Shown piece by piece: positions 7,701 to 56,125 of a stretch of 64,000 nucleotides of DNA (position 1 is the stretch's first letter; each line of letters begins with the position of its first letter). Both the position numbers and the translations under genes were made by a program. Location of the stretch: contig NC_135802.1 of the NCBI RefSeq assembly GCF_964213995.1, forward strand, positions 137,764,001 through 137,828,000, written 5' to 3'. A model generated the notes under the pieces. That model did no database searches and had not been told where the DNA came from. It saw only the letters and a list, made by a program, of their open reading frames with translations. Source of the stretch: Mustelus asterias (lineage: Eukaryota).

Positions 7701-7704
7701 ATAT

Positions 7705-8100
7705 AAAAGCAAATTACTGCGGCTGCTGGAATCTGAAACCAAAAGAGAAAACGTTGGGAGATCTCAGCACGTCTGGCAGCATCTGTAAGGAGAGAAAAGA
7801 GCTGATGTTTTGAGTCCAGATGACTCTTTGTCAAAGCTAAAAGGCATAGAAAGTGGGAGATGTTTATACTGTGGGGTGAGGGAAAGGAAGATGAATCATA
7901 GCCACAAAAACAAGGGGAAAGGCTGCTAATGGCAGCCCATAGAGAGAGTAGAAGGTGTGAAAGGCCTTTTCCATTTGGTCCTTCACACCTTCTATTCTCT
8001 CTATGCACTCCATTAACAGCCTTTCCCCTTGTTTTTGTGGCTATGACTCATCTTTCATTCCCTCACCCTGCAGTATAAATATCTCCCACTTTCTGTGCTT
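7705..8100. mobile_element. Penelope-derived end (UUGACAA hammerhead family) with internal inversion
   Basis: aaagcaaattactgcggctgctggaatctgaaacc...cagatgactctttgtcaaagc; about 7845-7930 is inverted relative to about 8015-8100. Confidence 0.7.
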
Positions 8101-12109: not shown

Positions 12110-12290
12110 GTAAGGAGAGAAAAGAACTGATGTTTCCAGATGACCCTTTGTCAAAGCTTTGACAAAGGGTCATCTGGACTCGAAACGTCAGCTCTTTTCT
12201 CTCCTTACAGATGCTGCCTAGACCTGCTGAGATTTTCCAGCATTTTCTCTTTTGGTTTCAGATTCCAGCACCGCAGTAATTTGCTTTTAT
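12110..12290. mobile_element. Penelope-derived fold-back end with a perfect 44-bp palindrome (12135-12178)
   Basis: tccagatgaccctttgtcaaag|ctttgacaaagggtcatctgga, followed by the tail cagatgctgcc.agacctgctgagattttccagcattttctc. Confidence 0.8.
12155..12193 (+). ncRNA. Minimal type-I hammerhead ribozyme motif, U3-A8 variant core
   Basis: AGCU-UUGACAA-A-GGGUC(AUCUG)GACUC-GAAA-CG-UC^AGCU: 4-bp stem I, 5-bp stem II, palindromic ACGU at stem III and a GUC cleavage triplet. Confidence 0.7.
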
Positions 12291-14783: not shown

Positions 14784-15258
14784 TGATGTGGAGATGCCGG
14801 TGTTGGACTGGGGTGAACACAGTAAGAGTTTTAACAACACCAGGTTAAAGGCCAACAGGTTTATTTGGTAGCAAACACCATTAGCTTTTGGAGCGCTGCT
14901 CCTTCATCAGATGGAGTGGAAATGTGGAAATGTGCATCTCTAAAGGTGATGGGACAAGTTGTGAAGGCTTTTATGAAAACACACAGGATTCTGGGCTTCA
15001 TAACTAGAAATATAGAAGACTAAAGCAAGGAACCTTTATAACACGCTGGTGAGGCCCTAGTTAGACTGTTGTGTTCAATTCTGGGTACCAAGCTTCAGGA
15101 AGAATGGCATGGGCATTGAGGGCACAGAGGAGATTTACTAGAATGATCCCACATTTCCACTCCATCTGACGAAGGAGCAGCACTCCGAAAGCTAATGGTG
15201 TTTGCTACCAAATAAACCTGTTGGACTTTAACCTGGTGTTGTTAAAACTCTTACTGTG
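14784..15258. mobile_element. Head-to-head Penelope-derived ends enclosing a 217-bp copy of nearby CR1 DNA
   Basis: About 14819-14927 is the reverse complement of about 15149-15258; the interior 14937-15153 matches 16238-16558 minus a SINE insert. Confidence 0.85.
15162..15198 (+). ncRNA. Minimal type-I hammerhead ribozyme motif, canonical core
   Basis: CCAU-CUGACGA-A-GGAG(CAGCA)CUCC-GAAA-GC-UA^AUGG: all core positions present, palindromic AGCU at stem III, AATAAA 12 nt downstream. Confidence 0.75.
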
Positions 15259-25094: not shown

Positions 25095-25268
25095 ACACAG
25101 AAACAGAAAATGATGGAAAATCTCCGCAGGTCTGACAGCATCCGTGGAGAGAGAATAGATCCAATGTTTCAAGTCAGGATGACACTTTGTCAGAGCTCCA
25201 CAGATACTGTCAGACCTGCTGAGATTTTCTGTTTTTGCTCCACAGCATCCACAGTATTTTGCCTTTAT
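25095..25268. mobile_element. Penelope-derived fold-back end with a CUGACAA hammerhead remnant on -
   Basis: On -: gagct-CTGACAA-a-gtgtc atcct gactt-GAAA-ca-TT-ggatc; inverted arm cagacctgctgagattttc follows. Confidence 0.65.
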
Positions 25269-25789
25269 CCTACTGCTGTATAAATATCTTTCATAATACT
25301 CCTGTGAACTTATTGTGATAAGTTTATTTATTACTGTCACAAGTAGGCTTACATTAACACTGCAATGAAGATAATGTGAAAATCCCCGAGTTGCCACACT
25401 CTGACACCTGTTCGGGTTCACTGAGGAGAATTTAGTCAATGCATCTAACCAGCACATCTTTCGGACTGTGGGAGAAAACCAGAGCACCTGGAGTAAACCC
25501 ACGCAGACATGGGGAGACAGACTCCGCACGGATAGTGACCCAAGCCAGGAATCGAACCTGGGTCCCTGGTGCTATGAGGCAGCAATGCACTGTGCCACCA
25601 TGCTGCCCTTGTTAAATGGCACTTTATAATGAAAAGCTGTTCTTGTTTGCAAAGTTTTATTTGCCAGGTGCAGGGGAGAAATGGTCTTACAGCTTGCTGG
25701 GAATGGATATGCAGGTCACAGGCAGGAGGGAGGCAAGGCACATAGTGAACCTCCCACCCCTCCTGTGCTTGTCCATCTGACTGAGCTCA

Positions 25790-55450: not shown

Positions 55451-55599
55451 ATGGGGAAAGCACATGGGCAAGTAAGGTTTCTCACTTCATTTAGCACAAC
55501 ATGTAACCTTTGCCTATTCATAAGCAGGGACCTGATCATCTACTTATGCATAGCTGATGTGGGGGGAGTGTGGATGTGGGGGGAGTGTGAATGTTGGGT

Positions 55600-55775
55600 G
55601 AAAAAAAATTTCTGCAGATGCTAGAATCTGAAACCAAAAGAGAAAATGCTGGAAAATCTCAGCAAGTCTGGCAGCATCTGTAAAGAGAGAAAAGAGCCGA
55701 TGTTTCAAGTCCAGATGACCCTTTGTCAAAGCTCAAAAGAAAGCTTTGACAAAGGATCATTTGGACTCGAAATGG
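55600..55775. mobile_element. Penelope-derived fold-back end with two UUGACAA hammerhead cores head to head
   Basis: On -: gagct-TTGACAA-a-gggtc atctg gactt-GAAA-ca-TC-ggctc (about 55694-55734). On +: aagct-TTGACAA-a-ggatc atttg gactc-GAAA (truncated). Confidence 0.75.
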
Positions 55776-56125
55776 AGGTCAGGGATAAGAGGGACCCTGG
55801 GCATTGGAGGTCAGGGATAAGAGGGACCCTGGGCATTGCCAGTTTGGCAATGCCAGCCTGGCCCCCTGGCACTGCCCAAAGGGCAAAGTGGCAATGCCCA
55901 AGGGAAAACCTTGGCACTGCCCACCAGGCATTGAGCAGTGCCAAGGGGGCAAGACCCAATTGAAGAATGCAGGAACTGTGACCTTTATATCAGGCCCAAG
56001 ACTGGATCCACTCCTAGTCATCAGGGACCACTTCTGCCTCACTTCTGGACTAATGAAAAAACCAGTGGGAGTGACTCCAGTTTTTACACGAATTCGATTC
56101 TTAGAATTTTTGGGGGAGAATCCCA
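55773..56125. repeat. Tandem ~32-bp duplication plus ggcactgcc/ggcattgcc-rich DNA-transposon end
   Basis: tggaggtcagggataagagggaccctgggcat x2; end motif cttagaattttttgggggagaatcccaccca is shared with about 30570-30600. Confidence 0.55.

Follow-up and report, generated by a model that had tools for sequence, protein, structure and literature searches.

The 64,000-nt stretch of DNA analysed here (the window) contains a short repeat copy whose first 39 nt resemble a hammerhead ribozyme, with UUGACAA standing where the core CUGANGA is expected. The question raised by this locus is whether the unusual core is the decayed remnant of a canonical one or the state of the element from which the copy derives and, if the latter, whether the ribozyme fold is still selected. 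The reading considered quite likely on the available sequence evidence is that the copy is a pseudo-LTR (pLTR) fragment of a Neptune-type subfamily of Penelope-like elements (PLEs), that the source of this subfamily carried a minimal hammerhead with a U3-A8 pair, and that the swap from C3-G8 likely kept a weak, dimer- or protein-assisted self-cleavage. The subfamily with U3-A8 is termed A, and its C3-G8 sister B.

The hammerhead motif and its copies in the window

All of the hammerhead parts claimed in the preliminary description (stem II, GAAA, the ACGU palindrome, the GUC triplet, stem I and the UUGACAA core) could be located at 12155-12193 (Table 1). The invariant core nucleotides (U4, G5, A6, A9, G12, A13, A14, A15.1, U16.1 and H17) are complete at 12160-12189, and represent the majority state among 75 copies selected by their tail. 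The motif has no stem III and displays the characters of the type I minimal class, including a stem I of 4-5 bp, G10.1-C11.1, an extra nucleotide after position 9 and a palindromic 15.2-16.2; the stem lengths, extra nucleotide and palindrome are among the features listed for PLE-type minimal hammerheads (PMC4209133). The Rfam models returned no hammerhead match at 12155-12193, neither at the gathering cut-off nor at E<=10, while sub-threshold miRNA matches around the motif were rejected as merely reflecting the inverted repeat. Using a structural descriptor with positions 3 and 8 left free, 73 matches (42 C-G, 29 U-A and 2 C-A) were obtained in ~1.45 Mb of fetched loci plus the window, a sample enriched for these repeats, whereas two shuffled versions of these sequences gave two matches in all, and neither match has a C-G or U-A 3-8 pair. 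Considering this difference, and that an exact 24-mer of the motif occurs 6003 times genome-wide versus no occurrence of the reversed 24-mer, the motif is not a chance match. Competing pairings of the motif, at -23.4 kcal/mol, are favoured in stability over its predicted domain-swapped dimer, at -15.1 kcal/mol. The same applies to the canonical subfamily B motif, and nearest-neighbour folding did not separate the subfamily A from the subfamily B motifs.

Table 1. Hammerhead parts and pseudo-LTR copies in the window
Feature	Position	Strand	Evidence or remark
Type I minimal hammerhead motif	12155..12193	+	Sequence, fold and constrained energy, structural descriptor
Stem I	12155-12158 with 12190-12193	+	4 bp
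Core U3..A9, UUGACAA in place of CUGANGA	12159-12165	+	
Extra A after position 9	12166	+	
Stem II	12167-12171 with 12177-12181	+	5 bp, one being G-U
GAAA	12182-12185	+	
Self-complementary ACGU palindrome	12185-12188	+	
C17 of GUC	12189	+	Predicted cut directly 3' of C17
Subfamily A pLTR fragment	12155..12290	+	Runs from the predicted transcription start (AGCT) to the distal end of the tail; lacks promoter and ORF
Inverted head-to-head partner of the 12155 copy	12110..12158	-	UUGACAA at 12148-12154; 5-nt deletion in stem II
Longer pLTR copy of subfamily A, with the TATA-box region	7703..7966	-	Core 7828-7834; G12A, altered palindrome
Inverted partner of the 7703-7966 copy	7974..8098	+	Promoter side only, stops short of the hammerhead
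Subfamily A pLTR fragment	55595..55737	-	Core 55723-55729; altered palindrome
Inverted partner of the 55595-55737 copy	55740..55772	+	Core 55746-55752; truncated after GAAA
Subfamily B copy (C3-G8 source)	25101..25197	-	Subfamily diagnostics; CTGACAA at 25187-25193, A8 via CpG decay
Short inverted partner of the 25101-25197 copy	about 25196-25275	+	

Only pLTR pieces of the PLE are present in the window. The five TTGACAA sites reported earlier all exist to within a base or two, but they make up three insertions, two of these being head-to-head pairs, rather than five separate occurrences. The copy with its core at 12159 is the only one of the five in which every hammerhead part is intact. It lacks a promoter and lies inside a predicted hairpin of -71 kcal/mol formed with its inverted partner, and is thus probably inert. 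Ribozyme folding at this locus is improbable, and the copy is likely a dead passenger. The fragment at 12155-12290 is 96 % identical to positions 1060-1195 of the 5' pLTR at locus L298.

Two further repeats in the window may be mentioned. Positions 55773-55951, which immediately follow the truncated hammerhead copy, hold a GC-rich imperfect inverted repeat along with a 32-nt sequence present as two exact tandem copies. A canonical CUGACGA minimal hammerhead at 15162-15201 (+ strand; core at 15166) belongs to a different and more abundant repeat family (31,326 exact 28-mers genome-wide). Pieces of distantly related RT-endonuclease ORFs occur in the fetched loci, and may be linked to the 15162-15201 motif.

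Positions 3 and 8 in two sister subfamilies

Among exact genome-wide 24-mers with the same flanks, the 6003 U3-A8 copies compare with 69 C3-G8, 126 C3-A8 and 98 U3-G8 copies. About two C3-G8 24-mers would be expected if positions 3 and 8 were independent, versus the 69 observed, and the C3-G8 copies bear a different tail, by which they are distinguished as sister subfamily B (tail counts: A, 9761; B, 4551). An intermediate source subfamily with U3-G8 or C3-A8 was rejected, as the 98 and 126 exact copies amount to 1.6 % and 2.1 % of the U3-A8 count, near the single-site background. When 100 copies were selected on the basis of the subfamily A tail alone, 75 reached stem I, with U3 in 73/75 and A8 in 69/75 of these, and with decay in 10/75 at each of two real CpG sites. 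Positions 3 and 8 were further compared with both excluded from the anchor, the classification and the tree (four copies remained unclassified and one was dropped at an edge). Subfamily A (n=110) comprises 90 U-A, six C-A, two U-G, no C-G and twelve other copies, and subfamily B (n=85) comprises 51 C-G, 18 C-A, four U-G, no U-A and twelve other copies. A tree of 52 rows has one well-supported branch (SH-aLRT 99), which divides A from B. Since sister subfamily B has C3/G8, as do two older relatives carrying CUGAAGA, U3-A8 represents the derived state, and U3 and A8 are placed by this tree as fixed together on the branch dividing A from B. By divergence from its own majority sequence (median 4.7 % in 52 long A copies; 12.8 % in four long B copies), subfamily A is dated as the younger of the two.

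These counts refute the notion that UUGACAA arose by decay of a canonical core after insertion. The G8 of the canonical core does sit in a CpG, but A8 is found in 101/110 subfamily A copies as against 15-20 % decay at real CpG sites, and the double mutation has a background of only 30 U3-A8 versus 31,326 canonical copies in the separate abundant hammerhead family. At this background level (30 of about 31,000), a second origin of U3-A8 in the latter family was likewise rejected. The earlier proposal that U3-A8 was already present in the source element is thus upheld by the 6003 exact copies and the 69/75 tail-selected copies with A8. The route CUGACGA to CUGACAA to UUGACAA, which had been drawn from the copy with its core at 25193, does not hold, as this copy carries the subfamily B tail. 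The G8>A change occurs in 19/85 subfamily B copies, a frequency that does not exceed that of G>A at two further CpG sites (30/85 and 27/85), so that the 25193 copy is a decayed B copy and not an intermediate between the subfamilies. Covariation had also been taken to imply selection; while positions 3 and 8 indeed do not vary independently across A and B, the two subfamilies split on one branch, and the covariation therefore reflects a single evolutionary event, which is weaker than was claimed.

Among the rows listed for contigs of eight public runs from eight other organisms, no variant was found at position 3 or 8 (variant thresholds of 4 % in one pass and 10 % in the other); as only contigs resembling the U3-A8 stretch were compared, these show the presence of U3-A8 rather than its exclusivity. 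In one of these organisms (run X7, organism E; L096 2436 and 2452), position 17 seems to be U and one base of the tail to differ, no 3/8 change being listed, which suggests a lineage-specific U3-A8 subfamily.

The motifs of A and B differ at six positions in 39 nt, namely at 3 and 8, at two nucleotides of loop II, at N17 (U to C) and at 1.1 (a G-U to an A-U pair), with a seventh difference attributable to CpG noise in the small B set. All six are compatible with the hammerhead structure. In a simulation designed after these differences had been seen, and with an assumed mutation model, the fold survived six random changes in 0.3-0.6 % of trials; of the trials in which the 3-8 pair was hit, 3-4.5 % kept it Watson-Crick. 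Identity between A and B is 32/39 in the motif, 82/100 in the downstream tail and 58 % in the 100 nt upstream, with the B majority sequence built from four long copies. The tail is about as conserved as the motif, and promoter or RT-binding functions may thus explain part of the conservation. An account in which the element and its source state are the same, while the U3-A8 motif is cleavage-dead, would have both changes reach fixation through drift or hitch-hiking of a single successful master copy, with the region kept for promoter, 5' UTR or RT-binding roles. It is consistent with there having been only one swap event, with the rapid decay of the CpG hot spot at G8 (19/85 in B) and with insertion templates that were uncleaved (see below), as well as with the insertion in vitro of hammerhead mutants of the anole element (PMC11167929) and the proliferation of Naiad elements without canonical hammerheads (PMC8557442). 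This account is nevertheless judged rather unlikely, given that all six differences spare the fold, that no U3-G8 or C3-A8 source subfamily was seen, and that the same swap arose independently in Schistosoma elements (PMC4209133). The last observation lends weight to what would otherwise be a single A/B swap. The presence of an independent U3-A8 swap at high copy number, next to a sister subfamily with the canonical core, speaks for continuing selection on the catalytic fold, to which subfamily A is probably still subject.

Parent element, insertion ends and a possible role of cleavage

The assignment of the hammerhead to a PLE, as made in the preliminary description, is borne out by its occurrence in both pLTRs of a unit encoding RT and GIY-YIG domains, and 12155-12290 is classified as a pLTR fragment of a Neptune-type PLE. 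A whole unit was found at locus L299 in the 3.68-Gb host genome. It consists of an inverted 5' copy, the 5' pLTR, RT and endonuclease, and the 3' pLTR, with the hammerhead motifs of the two pLTRs ~3.25 kb apart. Longer copies run upstream via a TATA-like box and the 3' UTR into the end of the ORF. Thirty loci were selected by endonuclease coding DNA alone, twenty-nine of which could be oriented; in 23/29 the motif lies 450-850 nt downstream of the endonuclease coding DNA, always with U3 and A8 (21 UUGACAA and 2 UUGACAG), and the single unoriented locus carries the motif too. The element ORF, pieces of which were retrieved from fetched loci outside the window, is a single ORF with RT plus a GIY-YIG domain at the C-terminal end. 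Its Pfam matches are weak (GIY-YIG, E 2.5e-4; RVT_1, E 7e-4; both below the curated cut-offs), and a PDB sequence search with the RT piece gave no match. A C-x4-C-x2-C linker precedes the endonuclease, in agreement with the CX2-5CxxC pattern between RT and endonuclease, and such a Cys linker is a mark common to Neptune and Nematis elements (PMC8557442). The architecture of an EN+ PLE is further represented by direct pLTRs with an inverted 5' copy (L299) and a tail of 30-40 bp. Clusters of near-identical RT-region copies on contigs C15 (about 80.5-84.2 Mb) and C20 (about 8.7-9.0 Mb) probably arose by segmental or tandem duplication and not by new insertion.

A likely start codon occurs at +172 in 3/3 of the 5' pLTRs (L298, L299 and L300). 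The 5' UTRs of these loci (L298 1060-1240, L299 1037-1215 and L300 1092-1270) also contain an upstream ORF of 22 codons at +57, as well as ~48 nt (GTAATT ... YAG) that may be an intron and end just before the +172 start codon. The distal cluster of 3' ends described below lies within this possible intron, which recalls the retained intron of the Drosophila Penelope (PMC2377424).

The ends of genomic copies provide information on the insertion template. Among 100 subfamily A copies, 56 have 5' ends within AGCT, the 5' strand of stem I (32 at its first A), 17 reach >75 nt upstream of the anchor and one begins at the cut site. In subfamily B (90 copies), the 5' end is at AGCT or no more than 3 nt from it in 42, at the cut site in none, and within 3 nt of the cut site in three. 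A cut-site peak was thus found in neither A (1/100) nor B (0/90), and the prevalence of stem I ends in A indicates that uncleaved RNA was likely the usual template. The AGCT boundary is also seen in other organisms, as 305 and 311 loose ends of DNA contigs. TATAAAT is located exactly 30 nt upstream of the boundary in 33/34 long copies that keep both box and core, and on the basis of this spacing the boundary, defined from DNA ends, likely corresponds to the transcription start. The extra G before the start that is expected from a cap is weakly enriched (9/20, p=0.04; 6/13, p=0.17). As the boundary follows a pyrimidine run and AG, a spliced-leader reading was considered, and rejected because the upstream bases are unrelated flanks or inverted partners with no shared exon. 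The 3' ends form two clusters separated by 35 nt, one at +97 to +107 (45 of 100 copies) and the other at +133 to +142 (40 copies), and those of short copies continue in register into the 5' UTR of the element.

An inverted partner is present for 53/100 copies. Head-to-head junctions were observed in 40/56 subfamily A copies starting at AGCT versus 8/26 in B. Together, U3 and A8 make the core at 12157-12167 self-complementary (CUUUG-A-CAAAG), and this core with the AGCT palindrome may favour such junctions. An origin of CUUUG-A-CAAAG by single-step palindrome correction was ruled out by reasoning, both arms having changed.

Under the favoured reading, the first base of stem I would be the transcription start, at a distance of 30 nt below the TATA box. 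The 5'-terminal 39 nt of the mRNA would then be the ribozyme, with the start codon following at about +172. Reverse transcription would begin internally, at about +101 or +136, and the reverse transcriptase would usually copy the uncleaved RNA back to its 5' end. Internal initiation together with copying to the 5' end would account for the many copies of 100-140 nt, often in head-to-head pairs. Cleavage may then be a late or regulatory step that is not needed for insertion, and could either remove the capped 35 nt, or trim a tandem transcript to unit length with the motif of the 3' pLTR as dimer partner. The common 5' end and the 100-140-nt length of most copies might also point to a separate non-autonomous retrozyme or SINE-like family spread by self-cleaved circular RNA, rather than to truncated pLTRs, and non-LTR retrozymes do derive from pLTRs (bioRxiv 10.64898/2026.07.22.740005). 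Such an origin is highly improbable, as the copies begin at stem I instead of the cut site and the short copies grade into longer ones and full units with their 3' ends in register with the 5' UTR. Furthermore, the copies examined are single, dispersed or in inverted pairs, with no head-to-tail arrays among them.

A more specific and tentative proposal, on balance doubtful, is that the hammerhead, as the first 39 nt of a capped mRNA, acts as a protein-triggered decapping switch, in which cleavage ends translation and only uncleaved RNA is copied into the genome. If so, the insertion ends of thousands of copies would constitute an in vivo record of the switch, and a comparison of A (U3-A8, younger and more abundant) with B (C3-G8) would test whether a retuned ribozyme raised transposition.

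Relation to known hammerheads and Penelope-like elements

The role of hammerheads in PLEs is an open question in the field (PMC8557442, PMC11167929). The insertion ends described here speak against a part for cleavage in producing the cDNA template, the A and B subfamilies represent a convenient test pair, and searches limited to CUGANGA undercount motifs of this kind. Both the motif class and the core variant are already known, and the most useful additions are a matched sister with the canonical core and the record of uncleaved templates left in the insertion ends. The novelty of the U3-A8 core implied in the preliminary description was overstated, as a U3-A8 descriptor had previously been applied to PLE hammerheads by Cervera and De la Pena in 2014 (PMC4209133). 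A literature search for earlier U3-A8 cores in PLEs recovered only this paper, the supplement of which was partly covered, and none on this particular family.

Cervera and De la Pena described minimal hammerheads in pLTRs, with an extra nucleotide after position 9 and low dimer activity, and reported about 1,300 matches of the U3-A8 variant in the Cercyon PLEs of Schistosoma mansoni, including the supplement rows UUGAUAAA and UUGAAAAA; in the available portions of the paper, no cleavage assay of this variant is reported. The Cercyon motifs resemble those described here in being type I minimal without a stem III, in the short stem I, the extra nucleotide between 9 and 10.1, the palindromic 15.2-16.2 and U3-A8, and in occurring mostly as single truncated copies with some opposite-strand pairs. 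They differ in that the present element belongs to a Neptune-type clade in another host (with a vertebrate-like 3.68-Gb genome), and is represented by at least 6003 exact copies along with a close C3-G8 sister subfamily in the same genome. Natural U3-A8 covariation has also been observed in full hammerheads, where it is cited as active in vitro (Perreault et al. 2011; PMC3088659). These share the swap but have a stem III, while the motif described here is without one and would need a partner. The Neptune clade (PMC8557442) shares with the present element the RT, Cys-rich linker and C-terminal GIY-YIG, the partial-tandem pLTRs, the inverted 5'-truncated copy and the 30-40-bp tail. In PAc, the Poseidon element of Anolis carolinensis, RT initiates at two internal sites bounding the tail, cleavage by the hammerhead requires the protein, and insertion mainly uses RNA that has not been processed (Frangieh et al. 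2024; PMC11167929). As in PAc, the hammerhead is here situated in the pLTR, two 3' end clusters lie ~35 nt apart and uncleaved RNA is the apparent template. PAc is distinguished by C3-G8 and an ORF starting at stem II, as opposed to the U3-A8 pair, likely start codon at +172 and TATA box at -30 of the element described here.
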